Source: Candidatus Poribacteria bacterium
GTDB lineage: Bacteria > Poribacteria > WGA-4E > WGA-3G
Length of the DNA: 64,000 nt
Direction: 5' to 3'
Assembly (NCBI GenBank): GCA_963665235.2
Contig: CAXXLX010000001.1
Coordinates: 1,056,001-1,120,000, forward strand
Shown here: piece after piece, positions 3,977 to 64,000 of the stretch
How positions within the stretch are numbered: the first letter of the stretch is position 1
Layout of the letters: each line of letters begins with the position of its first letter
The notes under the pieces: model-generated
Database searches by the model: none
The model's input: the letters and a program-made list of their open reading frames with translations, nothing else
What the model was told of the DNA's origin: nothing
Position numbers and translations under genes: made by a program

Positions 3977-4130
3977 CCGATGATATTAACCTATATATTG
4001 AAGAGCAGGCTTGTAGCCTGAAGCCTGTGCAATACTATGTATTTCACATCTTATACGGTTTGCAAGTTGCTTATAGAAAGCAACCAGGGTTCATCTACCA
4101 AAGCACGCAGAAAAATCCCGCGTGCGCCGT
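3977..4130 (-). ncRNA. Putative omegaRNA/reRNA scaffold of IS607 copy 1
   Basis: Non-coding right end conserved between both copies with a variable hairpin; location expected for TnpB guide RNAs; 5' boundary is a guess. Confidence 0.55.
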
Positions 4131-5637
4131 TCAAATCTCTGTCCATCTTGAGTCCTGTGCTATCTTTGATAACTTTAGCACCACCTAAGTTTTTGACAAT
4201 CTCACCTGTCCACGACACGGTTTTTGATGTGTATGCTTCGTTAACATCTACCACGATACATCCAGTTTCTTTCGCTTTATGCTTTAGAAACTGTTTAAAA
4301 CGGTAATGGGAGAGGGTCAACATTTGGCGGACGGTTTTCTTATGGAGTTTGCGTCCACTTTTACAAGTCTTATGAGAAGTCTCAAAAGTGGGGAGCAAGA
4401 TAATATCAAAGTTGTCGACAAGCCACCGTGCAACTTTCTTATGAAGTTCATCCACAAGGTTTCTAATCCGTTTTCTGATACGATTTGCGGCACGTCTCAT
4501 GTTCTTCTTTGCCTGTTGCTTAGTTGCTTTAGTCGCACGGGAGAGTAGGTCGTCAAGATATGAACAAAGTCTTTGAATACGATTGATTGCATGGTGTCCG
4601 AGCCATCCGAACCCATGTTCATGAAAATATGTCAGGAATGTCCTAACACCGGGGTCAAGTGCGACGACACGTCCGTTTGGTTTTCGCTTTCGTATCGTCA
4701 CACTATAACTGACACACAAATAATAGTGTGCGCCATCTTTGACCAAGCGGGAGTCTTTGATGTTTTCAGGGAGACGCTCACTCAGTCTAAGTTTTCCTAA
4801 TTTTGTGTGATAGACACCCTTTTCAGATATGGCAGCTTTGGGTATAAAGATGCTATCTGAAGGGGTTCGTTTAGATTTAAAAGAAACAGATTGAAACTGT
4901 CCTGTTTTCTGACATTTCTGCTTCGCTGCGCGAACGGCAAGACAAGCATCCCGAATAGCAACTGACTTAATTTGATATGGAACAGGTTTAGCCCAATCGG
5001 GTAAATCGTCAAGGATACCTGTCTTAATCGCTATCCAGTTCGCTTGTGTGTCCGTGTCATTCAACAAAGCAACCGTTTTGTTGTAGGTCCAACGTGCTGT
5101 GCCTATCCATTGACGCAGCGTCTCACGTTGTTCGGTTGTTGGATAAACTCTTATCTTCTTTGATTTGGTCACGGTAACTGCGGAGGCCGTGTAGTCTGCG
5201 ACTGAAGACGTGCAGGATGGCGAGAAGATCCGACGTGAGTTCTTCTTGTGGACTGTGTTCTGTTTGGTCAAGAACCACGAGTTCGCCACCGTTTTGTTCA
5301 ACGAGGTATCGTATAAGGTCGATACCGAAACGGGCGAGTCTGTCCCGATGGGCAATAACAACTTCGAGCTTATCACCTTGCATAAGCCTGTCCAATAAGG
5401 TTCTAAACCCTTTTCTTTTGAAGTTAAGGCCACTTCCGATGTCTCTGATGATTTCTGCTTCGGGGTAGATACTTCGCATATATGCGACTTGTCGTTCAAG
5501 GTCATCTCTTTGCTTGGTGCTTGACACCCGGCAATAGCAAACAGTGGTAACTGATTTGGATTTGCTTTTGATGTATCCATCAACATCGTAGCGTCTATGC
5601 CCGCCTCCTGTGCGGATAATATCAATCTTTCCTTCAT
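4051..5637 (-). CDS. tnpB: IS607 TnpB, Fanzor2-like, with long N-terminal extension overlapping tnpA
   Basis: RuvC-I ALDPG, IILLPTFET (P at canonical E), VNEAYTSKT, DRDLNGARGI; GGAG 8 nt before the ATG at 5637. Confidence 0.9.
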   Translation of the reverse strand: MKERLILSAQEAGIDATMLMDTSKANPNQLPLFAIAGCQAPSKEMTLNDKSHICEVSTPKQKSSETSEVALTSKEKGLEPYWTGLCKVISSKLLLPIGTDSPVSVSTLYDTSLNKTVANSWFLTKQNTVHKKNSRRIFSPSCTSSVADYTASAVTVTKSKKIRVYPTTEQRETLRQWIGTARWTYNKTVALLNDTDTQANWIAIKTGILDDLPDWAKPVPYQIKSVAIRDACLAVRAAKQKCQKTGQFQSVSFKSKRTPSDSIFIPKAAISEKGVYHTKLGKLRLSERLPENIKDSRLVKDGAHYYLCVSYSVTIRKRKPNGRVVALDPGVRTFLTYFHEHGFGWLGHHAINRIQRLCSYLDDLLSRATKATKQQAKKNMRRAANRIRKRIRNLVDELHKKVARWLVDNFDIILLPTFETSHKTCKSGRKLHKKTVRQMLTLSHYRFKQFLKHKAKETGCIVVDVNEAYTSKTVSWTGEIVKNLGGAKVIKDSTGLKMDRDLNGARGIFLRALVDEPWLLSISNLQTV

Positions 5638-5710
5638 TTGCTAATCTCCGTAAGTGGTCTGGGGTGTAATCCAATAGTTTGCTTGCTTTCTTTGCGGATA
5701 CATAAGTCAT
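5123..5710 (-). CDS. tnpA: IS607 serine recombinase transposase
   Basis: MerR-like HTH then YCRVSS..Q.DDLERQ, DIGSGLNFKRKG, HRDRLARFG, EEL.SDLLAILHVFS. Confidence 0.93.
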   Translation of the reverse strand: MTYVSAKKASKLLDYTPDHLRRLANEGKIDIIRTGGGHRRYDVDGYIKSKSKSVTTVCYCRVSSTKQRDDLERQVAYMRSIYPEAEIIRDIGSGLNFKRKGFRTLLDRLMQGDKLEVVIAHRDRLARFGIDLIRYLVEQNGGELVVLDQTEHSPQEELTSDLLAILHVFSRRLHGLRSYRDQIKEDKSLSNNRTT

Positions 5711-5716
5711 GTATAT

Positions 5717-5745
5717 ATTATAACACATTTTTACCGAAATGTCAA
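5717..5745 (-). promoter_or_regulatory. Sigma70-type promoter in IS607 left end
   Basis: TTGACA-17 nt-TATAAT; ATG 6 nt after the -10 box. Confidence 0.75.
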
Positions 5746-5785
5746 GAAAAACATAGATTTTTTGCTACTGTTAATCAACCTCGCG

Positions 5786-6727
5786 CTAACCAAAACTTTC
5801 CCCAGTTTTGACGTGATATCCGTTAATAAAATCGCCTATTTCCATAACTTTTTTTGTAGCAGGTTGAACCTGTAAGAGTTGGAGTAAACCTTCCCCAGTA
5901 GCAACAAGCAGCTCTCGCTGCGGTGTAATTTTCAATGTCCCGGGGGCCCCTGTGAAGTCTGTTCCCTGTGGATACGGTATACTTCGGATAATTTTGAGCG
6001 GGCGGTCGTCTCGAAAAAAGGTGTAAGCCCCTGGCCACATAGCAGTGCCTCGGATGAGATTGTGAATCGCGGTTGCCGAATCATCCCAATTGATACGTCC
6101 GGTCTCCTTTGTCAGACGCGGGGCATGGGTCGCCTCGGCGTGATTTTGGGGTGTTGCAGATGGGGGGGCACCGGGCGGTAAGTCTGATAACAGTGCCGCC
6201 AATTGACGTGCACCGATGCATGCAAGTTTGTCCATCAACGTCTCCACTGTTTCTGCAGCACAAATCGGAAACCGTTCTGCACAGATAATATCGCCTGTAT
6301 CCTCACCCGCATCTAGTAGCATCAGCGTTACACCGGTTTCTGTTTCACCGTTAATCAGTGCCCACTGAACCGGGGCTGCGCCCCGGTACTTCGGCAACAA
6401 CGATGGATGTAGGTTGATAGTCCCGCATGGCGGTATATCCAAAACAGCTTGCGGGAGAATCTGACCGAAGGCAGCGACAACAGTCACATCCGGTGCAAGC
6501 TGTTTAAGGGTGTTTATGAAATCGGGCTGTCTCACCTTTTCCGGTTGATACACCGGCAAATTGTGTTCCGTAGCGACCCTTTTCACGGCCGATGGGGTTA
6601 AACGTTTTCCGCGTCCCTTCGGCCGGTCCGGTTGCGTGACAACCCCGATAATTTCAAACTTATTAGAGATAAGTCCTGTTAGCGCGGGGACAGCAAATTC
6701 GCTAGTGCCCATAAAAAGAATTCGCAC
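5786..6727 (-). CDS. fmt: Methionyl-tRNA formyltransferase
   Basis: MRILFMGT, VVTQPDRPKGRG, NLHPSLLPKYRGAAP, DTGDI. Confidence 0.96.
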   Translation of the reverse strand: MRILFMGTSEFAVPALTGLISNKFEIIGVVTQPDRPKGRGKRLTPSAVKRVATEHNLPVYQPEKVRQPDFINTLKQLAPDVTVVAAFGQILPQAVLDIPPCGTINLHPSLLPKYRGAAPVQWALINGETETGVTLMLLDAGEDTGDIICAERFPICAAETVETLMDKLACIGARQLAALLSDLPPGAPPSATPQNHAEATHAPRLTKETGRINWDDSATAIHNLIRGTAMWPGAYTFFRDDRPLKIIRSIPYPQGTDFTGAPGTLKITPQRELLVATGEGLLQLLQVQPATKKVMEIGDFINGYHVKTGESFG

Positions 6728-6739
6728 AATACGCCCCCA

Positions 6740-7363
6740 TCAGAATCGAAGCTGTAGTAAGGATATAGTGAGAAATTCAGAATCTTCACTGTAGCAATTC
6801 ATAGATGTTTCCAAAGACCGCCTACCGATGCTTTCCGATAACCGGCTGCCGATAGCCATTTGCTGTCGCAGGCTTGCGATGCTCCCATCAGATTCCCCAT
6901 CCCCTTTATCCGGCGGTGCTGCAGGGGGGCGCGTCGGCACACGGGATGCTGTCCTATCTTTATTGCGCGTATTTAACCAATCCCACACTCCGATTATAAG
7001 AGCTAGCGAAACTGCCCCAATCCCAATTCTTCTATAATCCTTCGGGTATAATACCGGGGAAATTTTATTTTCCCGAATCATCTTCACTCCCCGAACAGCG
7101 AAATAGCTATGAACTGCAGCAAAGGGGAACGAGCTTAATGTAATAATCTCAAACCGGCGTAACGCGCTTTCGCTATATTCTTCCTCCGCTTGTTCCGCTT
7201 GTTCTGCTGGCGGGGTCATCTCCGTTTGTGCTTTAGCGATTTGTGGCATTATGGCGAAAATAAAAAGTCCAGCGAACACGGCAAACCAATAATAGGCATT
7301 CGCCGAATGACGTTCTCTGCCTCCCCCGCCGCCTGCGGGAGAGTTATACCGAATTTTGTTCAC
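6740..7363 (-). CDS. Hypothetical membrane/exported protein
   Basis: 207-aa ORF in operon, signal-like segment plus two hydrophobic helices. Confidence 0.65.
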   Translation of the reverse strand: MNKIRYNSPAGGGGGRERHSANAYYWFAVFAGLFIFAIMPQIAKAQTEMTPPAEQAEQAEEEYSESALRRFEIITLSSFPFAAVHSYFAVRGVKMIRENKISPVLYPKDYRRIGIGAVSLALIIGVWDWLNTRNKDRTASRVPTRPPAAPPDKGDGESDGSIASLRQQMAIGSRLSESIGRRSLETSMNCYSEDSEFLTISLLQLRF

Positions 7364-7374
7364 AATTTACGCTC

Positions 7375-7953
7375 CTATACGGCAGTATTGCTCTGATTAC
7401 GGTATCGAAAAAGGTAAAAAATCAGCATACCCGCCCCGATACATACAGACACATCCGCAACATTAAAAGTAGGCCAAAATAGATGCTTGCTCTCTATACC
7501 AAACTGAAGAAAATCGATGACACGGCCCAAGTAGAGTCGGTCGATGAAATTGCCAACAGCACCGCCGAGTAGAAAACCGAGAGCAATTCGCATCCATCGA
7601 CTGTGTCGGAATTGGAAGTAATAGATGAAAATGAAAACTAACGCCACAATTGTAACACCGATAAGTAGAGCACGTTGGCCTGATAATATACCGAAGGCAG
7701 CACCTGTGTTTGTATCATGCCGCAGATTGAAAAAACCTGGAATAACCGAATAACCTGTTCCCCAGGGGATATAATGTTGAACAAGCCATTTGGTAATTCT
7801 ATCAAGGAGTAAGGTCGGAATAGCCACAGCTAACAACGGCAGAACCGACTTGATATAATAAAATATCGACAACCTACCAGCAGCACTGCTATCAGGATTA
7901 GGTTTTTGATTTGTACGCATTCTTAAGGGCCTTCCATTCCGATTTTGCGTCAT
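7375..7953 (-). CDS. lspA: Lipoprotein signal peptidase II
   Basis: DRITK, NTGAAFG, GGAVGNFIDR, VIDF, FNVAD; start uncertain. Confidence 0.95.
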   Translation of the reverse strand: MTQNRNGRPLRMRTNQKPNPDSSAAGRLSIFYYIKSVLPLLAVAIPTLLLDRITKWLVQHYIPWGTGYSVIPGFFNLRHDTNTGAAFGILSGQRALLIGVTIVALVFIFIYYFQFRHSRWMRIALGFLLGGAVGNFIDRLYLGRVIDFLQFGIESKHLFWPTFNVADVSVCIGAGMLIFYLFRYRNQSNTAV

Positions 7954-10543
7954 CCTGTTCAGGGACGCTTGGTAATTGGTTCCGGGTACTCAGAAAAACG
8001 CTAACGGGGGTTTTACCCATCTCATGATGAATCTCCTCCGCCAAAAAAGGAAGCAACGGCGCAAAACATTGAAGAAGAACGGAGCATATTGCCTCAAACG
8101 CTATCTTCGCCGAGGTGAAACGCTCATCCGCACCATCAATTTGACATAAACTGATATAGCACTGGAAATCGGCACGACAGAAGTCGAATAAGCAGGTCCA
8201 CATGCTGTAGAAATCGTTCTCCCGATAAGCCAATTCAAAATCAGCTAAAAGTTCCTTCGTCGCCAACACTGCAAGAGTGTCCGGGGATAGCAGTGTAGTA
8301 GCCGAACTTTTATCAGTAGCACCGGAGCTGGTCTCATCCCGAAAATGTACATATACCTGCGCCGCTTCTTGTAATATTCGTTTCAACTGGGTATATTTGC
8401 GCTTGTATCTCTTTGCTAGGGTCTCAAGTTGCGCAGCACCATCCGCCTTAGCTCTGACCTTATGTAAATCGGGAGCAATTGCAATAAGTCTCAGAACATC
8501 GGCCGGGTATTTCTGAAGCATCGCGTCCGGTATCTCCATCCGCCAAACTTTTTCCGGAATGTTTTTGAGTTGTAAACGTTTAAACGGATGGCACTCTTTA
8601 ATAGGCCGACTCAGTCGGAGTGTTGCAGCCAGAACGTTCAACTCCCCTAACCATTTCAGAAACGGACGACGGGGGGCGAAAACGACACTCACAGCAGATT
8701 CAACGGAGCCCTTCTTGAAATCCGAGCTATACAGAGCTTGAAGAAGATTCACAAAATAGTTATCGATATGGGTCAACTCTTTACGGAAATCCTTCGCATG
8801 ACAGTTCGAACAGGACGTATCTGTAGGCAATAATTCCTCAACACTCAAGCGGAACCAGTGTTCGGTGCCACCACGAATTGCACTCCGCACAACGCGGAGA
8901 ACGTTTTTATCCAAGATAGGAACGTTGCAATGGTCACAGCGCAGAATCGGCAGTGGAATCCCCCACCGACGTTGCGATGACACCCGCATATCCGCAACCT
9001 TCATCATCTCTTTACGGATAGAACCCCCAAGCCGCTTGTTATAGTTGTTCCAATACTCCTTGGAATTGTTGAGCTCCTCCGTTATACTACTACCGGTAAT
9101 AGCGAAGCACCAATGTTGATACGGACGGAAAACTGATGGACTGTTACAGTGTTCGCAACACAACTGTGTCTCTTTTCGCATGCGCGCTTTTATCAAATAC
9201 TCCCGATTTTCTAATTCACTGCGGATGAACTCCTCCGCATTAAACAGATTTAGACCACACAACGAATCGGCATCCTCAGTAAATCTACCCGTCTCATCAA
9301 AGATAGGCGTTATCTGTGTAGCAGCATCGAATTGAAGAGGCACCCCAGCACCTCCTGTTCCGGGAACCTTCGAAGGAGGCTTACCCTCCTGGCCAGGTCC
9401 AGATAATGCATGGATAATGCTGTAACTCAGCGGATGATGTGCCGGATTCAAATGGATGACACTTGCCGCTAATTCTGTCCCATCGAAGGAATTTGAAATC
9501 CGATCGAACACTGCTTCAGGAATTACGAAAAACGGAAGCTCCGTTAGTGAGAAAAGAGGATGTGACACAGTGTGTTCTATCAGCTGAGCCGTTTTCAATT
9601 TGGCGATGGGTATGGGATAATCGTCCCGCGTCGCGTTCGGGTTTTCAAACATTTTTAACTGCGGCTCAGCGAAAATCAGATAATCGCTCTTAAACTCCAT
9701 AAGCCAATAGTTAACCTCTTCGCGAATGCCTAAGGCAATTGTACCGGCTATCTCCCAGAGCTGCGATATCGGAAGAAGCATCGCAAAAAAAACATTCACA
9801 CCGAATTCTTCGAAACCGGTATTGAAGGGAAACTTGATGTATGTATGTGAGGTATCTGTCGGAACCTGTGTAACGGTTTTGCCGAGCTCTAACGGTGTGG
9901 TGCATTTTGGGCACCAATGGCTCAGTTGCGGTTCATCGAGTAGGTATTCTAAATCTCGCAATCTATCTAGAACGCTAAAAAGTTTAGTGTCATAGCGCGC
10001 CTCTAATGTTCTGTCGGTGGAGCTCCAGTCAGCAAAAATGCCGAGGGATTCCAACTTCTGCCGCTGCTCTTTCAAGAGCTCGCTATAGACTTGATGGCAC
10101 TGTTTTCTAAAACCGAGCAGATTCTCCGAGTACCCAGAGGGATTCTTCTGGACAACCCCTGCCTCAATACTAAGCGGATAGGTTTCCCAAAGCGGTGAAT
10201 AGGCAATATCCTTCCCACGCATCATCTCATATTTGAGAAAAATATCCTGATAAATTTTTTGCCGAAGTGTCTCAACAGTCAACACATGCACAGGGGTCGG
10301 CTTTTCGCGAATCACATACGCGGGAATGCCATCCGTTTTGTCCGGAAATACGTAGACATTCTCCGCTGACCATAAGCTAAGCGTTACAGCCTCGCGCGAT
10401 TTTTCCGCTGTAGGTACAAGCTTCCGCGCGCGAGTCGGCCTGTTCTCAATCGGCACCGATGCCTTCGGTTTTCTACCCCGTTTCCCGGAAGATGTCTTCG
10501 CCGAAGCGGATTTTGAAAATGCTTTTGTTTTTGTGATACTCAC
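7898..10543 (-). CDS. Isoleucyl-tRNA synthetase-like protein lacking HIGH and KMSKS (probable pseudo-synthetase)
   Basis: IleRS-colinear segments (LGIFADW, WCPKCTT, SSQRRWGIPLP, KYPADVLRL, FAPLLPFLAEEI) at the yggT-ileS-lspA position, but catalytic motifs degenerate; original start probably ATG at 11950. Confidence 0.8.
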   Translation of the reverse strand: MSITKTKAFSKSASAKTSSGKRGRKPKASVPIENRPTRARKLVPTAEKSREAVTLSLWSAENVYVFPDKTDGIPAYVIREKPTPVHVLTVETLRQKIYQDIFLKYEMMRGKDIAYSPLWETYPLSIEAGVVQKNPSGYSENLLGFRKQCHQVYSELLKEQRQKLESLGIFADWSSTDRTLEARYDTKLFSVLDRLRDLEYLLDEPQLSHWCPKCTTPLELGKTVTQVPTDTSHTYIKFPFNTGFEEFGVNVFFAMLLPISQLWEIAGTIALGIREEVNYWLMEFKSDYLIFAEPQLKMFENPNATRDDYPIPIAKLKTAQLIEHTVSHPLFSLTELPFFVIPEAVFDRISNSFDGTELAASVIHLNPAHHPLSYSIIHALSGPGQEGKPPSKVPGTGGAGVPLQFDAATQITPIFDETGRFTEDADSLCGLNLFNAEEFIRSELENREYLIKARMRKETQLCCEHCNSPSVFRPYQHWCFAITGSSITEELNNSKEYWNNYNKRLGGSIRKEMMKVADMRVSSQRRWGIPLPILRCDHCNVPILDKNVLRVVRSAIRGGTEHWFRLSVEELLPTDTSCSNCHAKDFRKELTHIDNYFVNLLQALYSSDFKKGSVESAVSVVFAPRRPFLKWLGELNVLAATLRLSRPIKECHPFKRLQLKNIPEKVWRMEIPDAMLQKYPADVLRLIAIAPDLHKVRAKADGAAQLETLAKRYKRKYTQLKRILQEAAQVYVHFRDETSSGATDKSSATTLLSPDTLAVLATKELLADFELAYRENDFYSMWTCLFDFCRADFQCYISLCQIDGADERFTSAKIAFEAICSVLLQCFAPLLPFLAEEIHHEMGKTPVSVFLSTRNQLPSVPEQDDAKSEWKALKNAYKSKT

Positions 10544-11945
10544 TACGGCTGAAGCCGTGTGCTTCTTTTAGCACATCGACCCTCCTATGTGATTCCTGCT
10601 TCCGCGTCTCGTGCCTCCTTCTGAAAAACAGAAGTGGGTTGAGGTCTTACTTGCGCTCCACAGGCGTTTAGGCTCTCGGTATATCCTACCGCGAGGTTTC
10701 TCAAGTTGATTGCAGCGTTCAGGTCTCTATCTGCTCTATATTGGCAGACACTGCAATGATAAGTTCTATCGGATAATGTTAAATCTGTTTTCTTATGGCC
10801 GCAGCTGCTGCAAGTTTTACTGGATGCAAAGAACTGGCAGGCTTCGGTTACAGGGATACCGCGTGCCTCGGCTTTCGTCTTTAGCAACAATAGGAACCCG
10901 CCTAAGGCACTATCACTCAACGCCTTAGCAAGTTTGCTATTCTTTAGCAAGTTAGACACTTTTAGCGTCTCAATAACAATGCCTGACGCACGATTGACAA
11001 TATCCGTGCTTGCTTTCTGATGTGCATCGCAGCGAATAGAGGTAACTTTATAGTGGATACGCTCAACGACGCGCTTCTGCTTGAACCAGTTTTTAGACTG
11101 CGGCACTTGACGGCTCAACTTCCGTTGGGCACGGGCTAACTTTCGCTCATAGCGTTTCAAAGGCCTCGGGTTCTCATATCGCGTCCCATCACTGCACGTC
11201 GCTAAGGTATTAATACCGACATCTATACCGATTATGGGGTGCGTTGATACATCAACAGCTTCGGTGTCCTCCACTTCAACGGTGATAGATACGAACCAAC
11301 GATGCGCCGTGCGACTTATGGTCACTTTTATGATTTTGCCTACGAAACGCAACTCTTCAAATGTCTTTACCCAACCTATTTTGGGTAACCTAATCCGTTT
11401 GCCTTCCACTCTCACGGAGTGGGCAGCTGTCGTGTAGGATTGACGACTGCCACGCTTTTTGAAACGCGGAAAGCCTGAACCGTTATCAGTCCAATTCTTG
11501 ATGGCAGTCCCTAAATTGTCGATACCATATAGAGCCGCACGCTGATCTTGCGCTGAGGTCCAATCATACTCTCGCTTTTTCTCATTGAAACGATTGTTTA
11601 GCGTGAAAGTAGATAAGAAGGTATCCTCAGCTAAATTCGCTTTAAAATCAGTCAGACCCATATTGTAGGCAAAACGGGCATAACCGCATTGCGCGCTAAA
11701 CCAACGCCGCTGCTTAAAAGTCGGAGCTAAGGCAATCTTATGGGTTTTGTATGGCATCGTCTGAACTCCTGTTAGGTTGCTGACTCGCCTCGGTGAAGGC
11801 GGAGACAGAGTAACCGCTCCGCCGCTGAGGCAGTCCTATAAGTACACCACAGGGATATATCCCATGTCAACTATTTTAGCTGCTGCTGCACGAGACACAC
11901 GGGTCGGACCCAACGCTAAAGCATTGGGATTGTTAAGCAAGACCC
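10533..11945 (-). mobile_element. IS200/IS605-family (IS1341-type) tnpB-only element
   Basis: Left hairpin CCCAATGCTTTAGCGTTGGG with guide CAAT matching target TGAA; right hairpin CACGGCTTCAGCCGTAGTG with guide GAAG, ending at TCAC. Confidence 0.85.
10585..11757 (-). CDS. tnpB: RNA-guided endonuclease TnpB
   Basis: GIDVG, IVIETL, SKTCSSCG...CSVC, DRDLNAAINL. Confidence 0.95.
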   Translation of the reverse strand: MPYKTHKIALAPTFKQRRWFSAQCGYARFAYNMGLTDFKANLAEDTFLSTFTLNNRFNEKKREYDWTSAQDQRAALYGIDNLGTAIKNWTDNGSGFPRFKKRGSRQSYTTAAHSVRVEGKRIRLPKIGWVKTFEELRFVGKIIKVTISRTAHRWFVSITVEVEDTEAVDVSTHPIIGIDVGINTLATCSDGTRYENPRPLKRYERKLARAQRKLSRQVPQSKNWFKQKRVVERIHYKVTSIRCDAHQKASTDIVNRASGIVIETLKVSNLLKNSKLAKALSDSALGGFLLLLKTKAEARGIPVTEACQFFASSKTCSSCGHKKTDLTLSDRTYHCSVCQYRADRDLNAAINLRNLAVGYTESLNACGAQVRPQPTSVFQKEARDAEAGIT

Positions 11946-11954
11946 TTCATGTCT

Positions 11955-12233
11955 TTAAGGTGAAGGTGTAGGATGCAACAATGTATTCAGAATGTGTAAC
12001 AGCACAAGTAATACAATAGGTGAAACGTCAATGCCAAAATTCCGGGTTAACGGTCCAAGCACTTGGCGAATCGGTTGTAGAACCGGGTCGACCATTTGAC
12101 TCGTCGCATGAAAAATTCTACGCACGGCTAAATTCCGAGTCCCAAACACAAACCAAGAGAGAACCGCATTTACAATAACGATTATCATATAAACTTCAAG
12201 CAAGTGACTGAGAACCCTAGCGAGCATGTTCAT
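11955..12233 (-). CDS. yggT: YggT family membrane protein
   Basis: AVLSWF, DPVLQPIR, IDVSPIV; follows yggS-proC. Confidence 0.88.
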   Translation of the reverse strand: MNMLARVLSHLLEVYMIIVIVNAVLSWFVFGTRNLAVRRIFHATSQMVDPVLQPIRQVLGPLTRNFGIDVSPIVLLVLLHILNTLLHPTPSP

Positions 12234-14025: not shown

Positions 14026-14427
14026 CTACTTAGACCGTGTAATGAATCCGACATCTTCATCCCAGTCAGGGTCTTCATCTTCGAAAGATTCTATGTCAAT
14101 GCGCCCCTTAACAAAACCATCTGGCACAATAATGCTTATAGGTCTGCTGCTGCAAAACAGTATACCGATAACGGCTAGTGCCACCGCACAACTTACAATA
14201 CCGATACCGACCATAACAATATGCGTCGCCTCCGTGTAAACTTGCGTGACCTGGACCGCACTTACCGATTCCTGTGACAAAAGATCCGGGTATTTTTTAT
14301 CAGGATAGTTGTAGCCCCGGCGGATAAAACGGAGACCAATGATACCCGTAACAACCGAGGATATTCCAAATATTGCACGTACTAGAAAGTTAAGCATCTT
14401 CTTTAGTGTCCAATTTTTAATTCGCAA
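14026..14427 (-). CDS. Hypothetical two-TM membrane protein
   Basis: Two hydrophobic helices and an acidic C-terminus. Confidence 0.55.
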   Translation of the reverse strand: MRIKNWTLKKMLNFLVRAIFGISSVVTGIIGLRFIRRGYNYPDKKYPDLLSQESVSAVQVTQVYTEATHIVMVGIGIVSCAVALAVIGILFCSSRPISIIVPDGFVKGRIDIESFEDEDPDWDEDVGFITRSK

Positions 14428-63943: not shown

Positions 63944-64000
63944 TACCGCTACGGGGATTCGAACCCCGGTTTGATGGCTGAGAACCACCCGTCCTAACCC
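63944..64000 (-). tRNA. tRNA-Glu(CTC), 5' part outside the window; CCA not encoded
   Basis: Anticodon arm GGTGG-TTCTCAG-CCATC, T-arm CGGGG-TTCGAAT-CCCCG. Confidence 0.9.

Follow-up and report, generated by a model that had tools for sequence, protein, structure and literature searches.

A probable pseudo-synthetase at the ileS-lspA locus of Candidatus Poribacteria: a type-1 isoleucyl-tRNA synthetase homolog that has lost its catalytic and editing motifs

What is a gene for when it has the genomic address and the predicted fold of isoleucyl-tRNA synthetase (IleRS), and has lost the signatures with which that enzyme activates its amino acid? The question is raised by a 64,000-nucleotide stretch of DNA from a Candidatus Poribacteria bacterium (GenBank assembly GCA_963665235.2, contig CAXXLX010000001.1, positions 1,056,001 to 1,120,000 of the forward strand), here called the window, in which an open reading frame (ORF) of 881 codons without stops lies on the reverse strand upstream of lspA. 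We refer to the gene as psi-ileS and to its product as psi-IleRS. An earlier note, made from the letters of this DNA, had proposed that the protein is non-catalytic but maintained and that another gene encodes the active IleRS, and this proposal was borne out by a second enzyme in the same genome, by orthologs with the same losses, and by a ratio of non-synonymous to synonymous change (dN/dS) of about 0.18. We think that psi-IleRS is very probably a dead but maintained pseudo-synthetase, and that it probably has a new, non-enzymatic job.

The window protein matches the Pfam families tRNA-synt_1 (72.5 bits, residues 55-687) and Anticodon_1 (32.3 bits), and its top-ranking NCBIfam model is ileS (TIGR00392), with 172.1 bits against an equivalog cut-off of 621.4 bits, the curated whole-protein threshold for a functional IleRS. 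The closest solved structures by sequence are the type-1 enzymes (IleRS1) of Priestia megaterium (8c9f/8c9e, E 1e-27) and S. aureus (1ffy). AlphaFold2, given an alignment of 70 sequences, produced a model with a mean pLDDT (predicted local distance difference test) of 86.7 and a pTM (predicted template modelling score) of 0.86, and pLDDT falls below 50 only at residues 1-38, 396-401 and 743-747. When this model was compared with the PDB by Foldseek, the best matches were again type-1 IleRS (8c9f/8c9e; for 8c9f, E 9e-35, TMq 0.69, 865 aligned columns), and the ranking ran from IleRS structures to ValRS and then LeuRS. Thus, psi-IleRS is predicted to be a folded protein with the overall IleRS fold, and the uninterrupted frame colinear with IleRS that the earlier note had described stands. 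Its description as full-length holds for the open frame of 881 codons but not for the domain content, since the C-terminal zinc-finger domain of IleRS1 (~120 aa) is missing: residue 873 of psi-IleRS pairs with residue 802 of the 921-residue PDB chain. The most distant orthologs (L019, L021 and L023) still carry this domain. Public records label homologs "isoleucyl-tRNA synthetase" or "class I tRNA ligase family protein", and those at 40-51% identity carry the source name "Candidatus Poribacteria"; such labels overstate psi-IleRS, which matters for annotation.

The residues that would perform the chemistry were located by aligning psi-IleRS with five motif-bearing IleRS1 proteins and PDB 8c9e/8c9f. 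HIGH, GWDCHGLPIE and KMSKS had been reported as erased, and the editing motifs WTTTPWT and GTG.VH as degenerate; the alignment agrees on all five, and the residues that stand in their places are given in the table. The counterpart of GTGxVHxAPxHGxxD reads ASVIHLNPAHHPLSY, with Ser in place of Asp, and that of EGxDQxRGWF reads APRRPFLKWL; the only survivors of the pocket motifs GWDxHGLP and EGxDQxRGWF are two Trp and the Glu of LPIE. The same losses are found across the phylum. None of the 19 full-length orthologs, which come from eight family-level groups, retains HIGH, GWDxHGLP or WTTTPWT, and KMSKS is kept in none of 21 orthologs (the 19 together with two partial ones). In 30 family rows the GWD Asp is kept in 24%, and the Asp and Gln of EGxDQ in 17% and 10%; at the editing site, in connective peptide 1 (CP1), 0-7% of rows retain the Thr-rich motif, 21% the first His and 38% the Asp. 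In 23 motif-bearing IleRS1, 147 positions reach a conservation of 90% or more; of these, 39 persist in at least 80% of the 30 rows, 30 in 30-80%, and 78 in less than 30%, the last set including PPYANG, HIGH, GWDxHGLP, TTTP, EGxDQxRG and KMSKS. As read from these alignments, the scaffold appears to be kept and the chemistry gone, and we infer that psi-IleRS no longer charges or edits tRNA.

Both the position of the gene and its place in a tree point to where it came from. The claim that it occupies the canonical ileS locus, in the order yggT-ileS-lspA, held up: all 28 orthologous loci have lspA downstream in the same orientation, and yggT is recognisable upstream in 22 of them. The intact IleRS1 genes of three Armatimonadia-type metagenome-assembled genomes (MAGs; L057-L059) also lie upstream of lspA, and E. 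coli and B. subtilis share the ileS-lspA linkage. A quick IQ-TREE analysis of 54 rows, with support from the Shimodaira-Hasegawa-like approximate likelihood ratio test (SH-aLRT) only and with long branches that make finer placement unsafe, separates IleRS1 (support 100) from the type-2 enzymes, IleRS2 (support 98). Within the IleRS1 clade, 14 of 15 family rows form a single clade (SH-aLRT 100), and the most distant ortholog, L019, lies outside it on a long branch. Because the lspA locus is conserved and the family falls inside IleRS1, psi-ileS appears to descend in place from the ancestral type-1 ileS.

A cell with such a gene would need another enzyme to charge its tRNA-Ile, and the search for a second intact ileS found one. 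The window genome (5.31 Mb in 4 contigs) has one ileS above the family cut-off, at G000:C1:115489-118023, which encodes an intact IleRS of 1056 aa with GVHH and KMSKS (951.6 bits with TIGR00392). This protein scores 1029-1040 bits against the type-2 enzyme of P. megaterium and 328-336 bits against the type-1 enzyme, and it is placed in the IleRS2 clade of the tree. Across the phylum, 119 of 121 sampled genomes have an ileS above the cut-off.

The canonical enzyme shows a variation of its own in genera g8, g9, g10 and g12 (groups f2/f3), where the TIGR00392 match comes in two pieces (e.g. G020:C1:6496228-6498432), with 541-562 bits for positions ~130-860 and 671-699 bits when in-frame neighbours are included. 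The frames are 1120-1194 aa long in these genera, compared with 1045-1146 aa in most other groups, which suggests an insertion near the N-terminal part.

Strong matches to the psi-IleRS family were found in 107 of the 120 other phylum genomes; these carriers belong to eight family-level groups, and the lowest pairwise identity is 24%. A match is present in every genome of groups f1 (81/81), f4 (3/3), f5 (4/4), f6 (1/1), f7 (2/2) and f8 (1/1), and of genera g10 and g12 in group f3 (15/15). In a representative library of 1.84 billion proteins, 48 clusters match at E <= 1e-30, and among the best 20 of these 48 (P0013, P0121-P0138 and P0140) none has any of the four motifs at its proper place; P0121 carries an unrelated HTAH at residue 119.

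Selection on the family was measured in ten genomes of genus g2 as Nei-Gojobori dN/dS for pairs of sequences, using only pairs with dS of 0.1-2, which are not independent of one another. The window copy is only 53-54% identical to its nearest sampled orthologs, with saturated dS, and the psi-IleRS medians exclude it. The median for psi-IleRS is 0.178 (43 pairs), and a second computation gave 0.175 (46 pairs), values well below the neutral expectation of 1 that the earlier note had set as the mark to be checked. Under the same procedure the medians are 0.051 for IleRS2 (55 pairs), 0.081 for proC (44 pairs) and 0.125 for lspA (51 pairs). By domain, psi-IleRS has medians of 0.115 for connective peptide 2 (CP2) with the C half of the Rossmann domain, 0.138 for the Rossmann N half, 0.198 for CP1 and 0.274 for the helical domain; the value for the N-terminal tail, 0.563, is unreliable since stop-to-stop frames were used. 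psi-IleRS is maintained under purifying selection.

What has been maintained can be read from the residues that the family shares. The window protein has, at 68 positions, the residue shared by at least 85% of 29 representatives less than 60% identical to each other, and it agrees with 68 of 69 such positions overall, the sole deviation being Val to Ile. The conserved set includes W119, an SxQRxWGxPxP block, D682 and R685 of a GADxxR-type motif, and eight zinc Cys. These Cys, each kept in at least 85% of the 29 diverse members, make up the four CxxC pairs that had been noted in the window copy.

We consider it likely, taking the explanation as a whole, that the ancestral IleRS1 of the phylum was displaced in tRNA charging by a type-2 IleRS encoded elsewhere, and was then erased and kept as a binding protein. 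The old copy would have lost the sets of residues for binding ATP and isoleucine, for forming the adenylate and for editing, and would have been retained under purifying selection as a folded, zinc-containing protein of ~860-880 aa. It would act by binding, most likely of RNA or tRNA without reading the anticodon, or of a protein partner instead, and the binding surface could be the preserved Rossmann/CP core together with an added basic N-terminal tail. Of the possible modes, RNA or tRNA binding via core and tail is the one that we would tentatively put first, and the remaining share of the probability is divided between a protein partner and small-molecule sensing. The strongest constraint in psi-IleRS is on the Rossmann/CP2 core, which in active enzymes holds the acceptor arm, and we count this in favour of nucleic-acid binding. 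The Lys/Arg-rich N-terminal tail is present as had been claimed, with a net charge of +12 and disordered in the model; across 131 family members the first 40 aa have a median net charge of +6. Eukaryotic synthetases have comparable lysine-rich extensions that bind tRNA. A precedent for binding of this kind is archaeal LeuRS-I, a synthetase paralog that binds tRNA but does not charge it (PMC9437257).

The conserved core could also be read as the site of a different reaction, with psi-IleRS as an aminoacyl-tRNA-dependent transferase like SbzA or the cyclodipeptide synthases, or as a protein that binds or senses isoleucine. Constraint is tightest in the two Rossmann halves and CP2 (omega 0.115-0.138), and P82, W119 and W631, which by analogy with T. 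thermophilus IleRS would be elements of the isoleucine pocket, survive in the family. There is also a precedent, in that SbzA, an IleRS homolog, transfers Ile from Ile-tRNA, as described in PMC9437257. However, no family-specific cluster of new polar residues was found in the pocket, and the conserved residues are almost all ancestral scaffold; more generally, no new conserved polar cluster that might form a new catalytic site was found among the family-conserved residues. The neighbours (lspA, yggT, proC, yggS, fmt, Cu-oxidase_4 (PF02578) and insertion sequences (IS)) form no biosynthetic cluster, and, as weak evidence, no fused forms were seen among proteins of 1543-4405 aa at E <= 1e-20. 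We therefore regard a new enzymatic or isoleucine-sensing role as improbable.

In the window itself the start of psi-ileS has been altered by a mobile element. Contigs of one DNA run (one contig) and of two RNA libraries carry the joint 10532->11946, in which 1413 bases are skipped, and the skipped stretch matches the Pfam families OrfB_IS605 and Cas12f1-like_TNB. In the IS-free allele the start ATG lies four bases after the yggT stop, and the product begins Met-Lys-Lys like its orthologs; 83% of representatives have Met at family position 3. Thus, the frame first listed for this gene is indeed open, but its GTG start and first codons belong to the IS end, and the native ATG is 1.4 kb upstream. 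The TnpB element is polymorphic in the sampled population, and the flank past its downstream end consists of the first coding bases of psi-ileS. In run X6, 15 of the 17 bins of psi-ileS are covered by RNA-library contigs that are 97-100% identical to the window; this hints at transcription, as weak evidence, given that DNA carry-over in the library is possible.

Several observations weigh against the explanation that we favour. The dN/dS of psi-IleRS is 3.5 times that of the active IleRS2, indicating relaxed constraint. Group f2 (9 genomes) and genus g8 (4 genomes) gave weak matches only, which fall on the canonical enzyme, and psi-ileS is absent; in the five of these 13 genomes that were inspected, yggT is followed directly by lspA. 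Two orthologs (G024:C1:841961-844429 and G037:C1:214787-217282) contain a single in-frame stop each (TAA and TGA), which could be pseudogenisation or sequencing error. In the window genome psi-ileS may be poorly expressed because the IS removed its native start. Other points bear on the proposed mode of action. The protein body is mildly acidic (isoelectric point 6.27). The IleRS1 C-terminal zinc domain (CxxC...CxxC) is missing from 83-93% of family rows as well as from the window protein, and in the anticodon-domain helix each R-N-x-x-R residue persists in 3-21% of 30 rows. Because these residues and the zinc domain are gone, the case for anticodon-specific binding of tRNA-Ile is weakened. 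The anticodon-binding helical region had been said to remain, and this is so for its fold but not for its reading residues, which most rows have lost; judged from the alignment, the domain seems to survive as a fold and not as a conserved reading head. Finally, two genomes, G120 (81% complete) and G009 (99% complete, 120 contigs), have no canonical IleRS, an IleRS2 protein search of both gave no match, and in G009 the dead paralog is the only IleRS-type gene detected. We assume that the missing IleRS2 genes are assembly gaps, probably also in G009, which is the single misfit among the observations.

Some of these points would suit a redundant gene that is slowly decaying, a pseudogene yet to be disrupted: non-synonymous evolution ~3.5x that of IleRS2, loss in two lineages, in-frame stops in two orthologs and an IS insertion at the start in the window genome are all what decay might look like. 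The gene is nevertheless intact in nearly all 107 carriers, across eight family-level groups and at identities down to 24%, with a dN/dS of 0.18 and a confident AlphaFold2 model, and the window copy itself keeps 68 of the 69 family-conserved positions. These features make simple decay highly improbable. The deletions were clean and occurred at least twice, in two lineages, and the gene is therefore useful but dispensable.

The deletions also speak to the idea that the frame is open only because expression of lspA needs the passage of ribosomes or of transcription, the protein itself being idle. The psi-ileS stop overlaps the lspA frame in the window, in all 28 loci the two are same-strand neighbours, and the dead IleRS1 of an Armatimonadota genome, described below, is also upstream of lspA. 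Yet in the deletion lineages lspA stands directly after yggT. Moreover, selection for an open frame alone predicts a dN/dS near 1 and not the observed 0.18 (0.115-0.27 by domain), and the invariant zinc Cys, Trp, Gly and Pro are what one expects of a protein that folds. We judge an idle protein kept for the sake of lspA to be quite improbable.

The kept fold, together with G009, which is rated 99% complete and is without another IleRS, could also be taken to mean that psi-IleRS still works as an IleRS, with motifs altered beyond recognition. This we find the least credible of the alternatives, as the motifs that bind ATP, ribose and the amino acid (HIGH, KMSKS, the GWD Asp and EGxDQ) have all been lost together, 119 of 121 genomes have a canonical IleRS2, and the psi-ileS gene has been deleted outright in 13. 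A decoy for mupirocin-type inhibitors was considered as well; such inhibitors occupy the adenylate pocket, and this candidate was rejected because the pocket is erased in psi-IleRS.

Table 1. Features of the psi-ileS locus, in window coordinates.
Feature	Position	Strand	Basis or remark
psi-IleRS, dead IleRS1 paralog	7898..10543	-	881 codons as listed; listed start is a GTG within the IS end
Basic disordered N-terminal tail (residues 1-44, net charge +12)	10412..10543	-	pLDDT 33-46
Lost HIGH position: TVET (residues 89-92)	10268..10279	-	alignment
GWDCHGLPIE/GWDxHGLPIE position: LWETYPLSIE (residues 118-127)	10163..10192	-	only Trp and final Glu kept
CxxC pair 1, zinc site (C211, C214)	9902..9913	-	family conservation, alignment
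Lost editing motif WTTTPWT position: LLPISQLWE (residues 256-264)	9752..9778	-	alignment
GTGxVHxAPxHGxxD remnant, editing domain	9422..9466	-	second His kept, Asp replaced by Ser
CxxC pair 2, zinc site (C463, C466)	9146..9157	-	family conservation, alignment
CxxC pair 3, zinc site (C536, C539)	8927..8938	-	family conservation, alignment
CxxC pair 4, zinc site (C578, C581)	8801..8812	-	family conservation, alignment
Lost KMSKS loop position: NIPEK (residues 661-665), ahead of KYPADVLRL	8549..8563	-	alignment
Helical anticodon-binding-type domain (residues 691-881)	7901..8473	-	Pfam Anticodon_1; fold kept, reading residues not conserved
lspA (signal peptidase II), frame overlaps psi-ileS 3´ end	7375..7953	-	ORF, locus comparison, Pfam
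TnpB-only IS200/IS605-type element, 1413 bp	10533..11945	-	just after psi-ileS native start; tnpB ORF 10585..11757
psi-ileS native ATG, split from gene body by the IS	11948..11950	-	IS-free joint; sequence reading
yggT, upstream neighbour in conserved order	11955..12233	-	ORF, locus comparison, Pfam

Around psi-ileS the gene order that recurs in the phylum is Cu-oxidase_4 (PF02578), a 133-aa ORF, yggS, proC, yggT, psi-ileS, lspA, a 207-aa ORF and fmt, with neighbour families supported by Pfam and IS elements also nearby. An Rfam search at gathering thresholds of the window and seven orthologous loci found no T-box or other leader near psi-ileS. The two ORFs without names, at window 6740-7363 (207 aa, adjoining lspA) and 14026-14427 (133 aa, adjoining yggS), have no Pfam match and hold positions that are conserved across the phylum; the 207-aa ORF keeps its place even in loci where psi-ileS is deleted. 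A second mobile element adjoins fmt (window 4051-5728), and GC falls to 0.438 in 4001-6000. There, a 528-aa TnpB-like ORF (HTH_OrfB_IS605, OrfB_IS605 and Cas12f1-like TNB) is overlapped by a 201-aa ORF that looks like a putative serine recombinase. At the other end of the window, a tRNA gene (63944-64000, minus strand; Rfam RF00005, 33 bits) is cut by the window end.

The Poribacteria are not the only place where a resident IleRS1 has been eroded. Weaker matches in the representative search include other IleRS1-like proteins with broken motifs, some named Armatimonadota or Candidatus Wallbacteria. One of these, which we take as an independent case, is P0183 (L056, on an Armatimonadota MAG contig, 4001-6844), which lies upstream of lspA and is without HIGH, the Thr-rich motif and KMSKS, whereas its relatives L057-L059 keep HLGQ (a HIGH variant), WTTTPWT and KMSKS. 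The genome that carries this dead copy (G121) has a second ileS (917.7 bits, in a 1113-aa frame), and its relative G122 has a single ileS, at the lspA locus. The path from a second IleRS to an eroded resident IleRS1 with an open frame was thus started at least twice, and the Armatimonadota case suggests that this route is perhaps general wherever IleRS2 displaced IleRS1. A further step can be imagined, which we regard as doubtful, in which such displacement repeatedly leaves a dead IleRS1 at ileS-lspA that is then exapted; the Poribacteria copy would be a long-lived RNA- or tRNA-binding regulator or sensor, a counterpart of the HisZ/GCN2 type (the partner of HisZ is HisG), and early stages might be seen in Armatimonadota and perhaps Wallbacteria.

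Other IleRS1-like proteins with degenerate HIGH and/or KMSKS in the same search are P0153, P0157, P0169, P0176, P0179, P0242 and P0248, and this set includes a 1266-1438-aa form labelled Candidatus Wallbacteria.

How does psi-IleRS compare with what is known? Synthetase-derived pseudo-enzymes have been described before, and the textbook cases are truncated or duplicates. psi-IleRS likewise occurs together with an active synthetase for the same amino acid and is under selection; a phylum-wide erased IleRS1 is without a description that we found in the literature searched. A full-text search, with supplementary lists (e.g. the paralogs of PMC5388404) outside its reach, returned IleRS2, MupA/MupB, SbzA, LeuRS-I and HisZ and no catalytically erased IleRS1, and passages of PMC5388404, PMC9437257 and PMC4861432 describe none either. 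The nearest relative in structure is IleRS1 itself (8c9e of Priestia megaterium; 1ffy/1qu2 of Staphylococcus aureus), with which psi-IleRS shares a Rossmann domain split by CP1 and CP2, two zinc knuckles, the helical domain, the clade and the locus upstream of lspA. Unlike IleRS1, it has lost HIGH, KMSKS, GWDxHGLP, EGxDQ and the editing motifs, scores far below the TIGR00392 cut-off, lacks the C-terminal zinc domain, and has gained a basic N-terminal tail.

Two known systems come close in other ways. In Bacilli, according to Zanki et al. (10.1101/2022.02.09.479832), IleRS1 and IleRS2 coexist, both active and with complementary roles. As in those pairs, an ileS1-type and an ileS2-type gene share one genome in Poribacteria; in contrast to the Bacilli as described there, the ileS1-type copy appears catalytically erased and IleRS2 would be the sole enzyme. 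Archaeal LeuRS-I, as presented in PMC9437257, binds tRNA without aminoacylation, has a disrupted CP1 domain and still makes the adenylate. LeuRS-I and HisZ resemble psi-IleRS in being non-aminoacylating paralogs kept beside an active synthetase, but psi-IleRS differs from LeuRS-I, on the same account, in that its adenylate site seems to be gone. It also belongs to another synthetase family, is found in bacteria, and arose, as we propose, through displacement and not through duplication. Here, a whole housekeeping synthetase would have been replaced by the other type of the same enzyme and kept throughout the history of a phylum with both active sites erased, and psi-IleRS may in this way offer a clean natural experiment on the uses of a synthetase scaffold besides catalysis.

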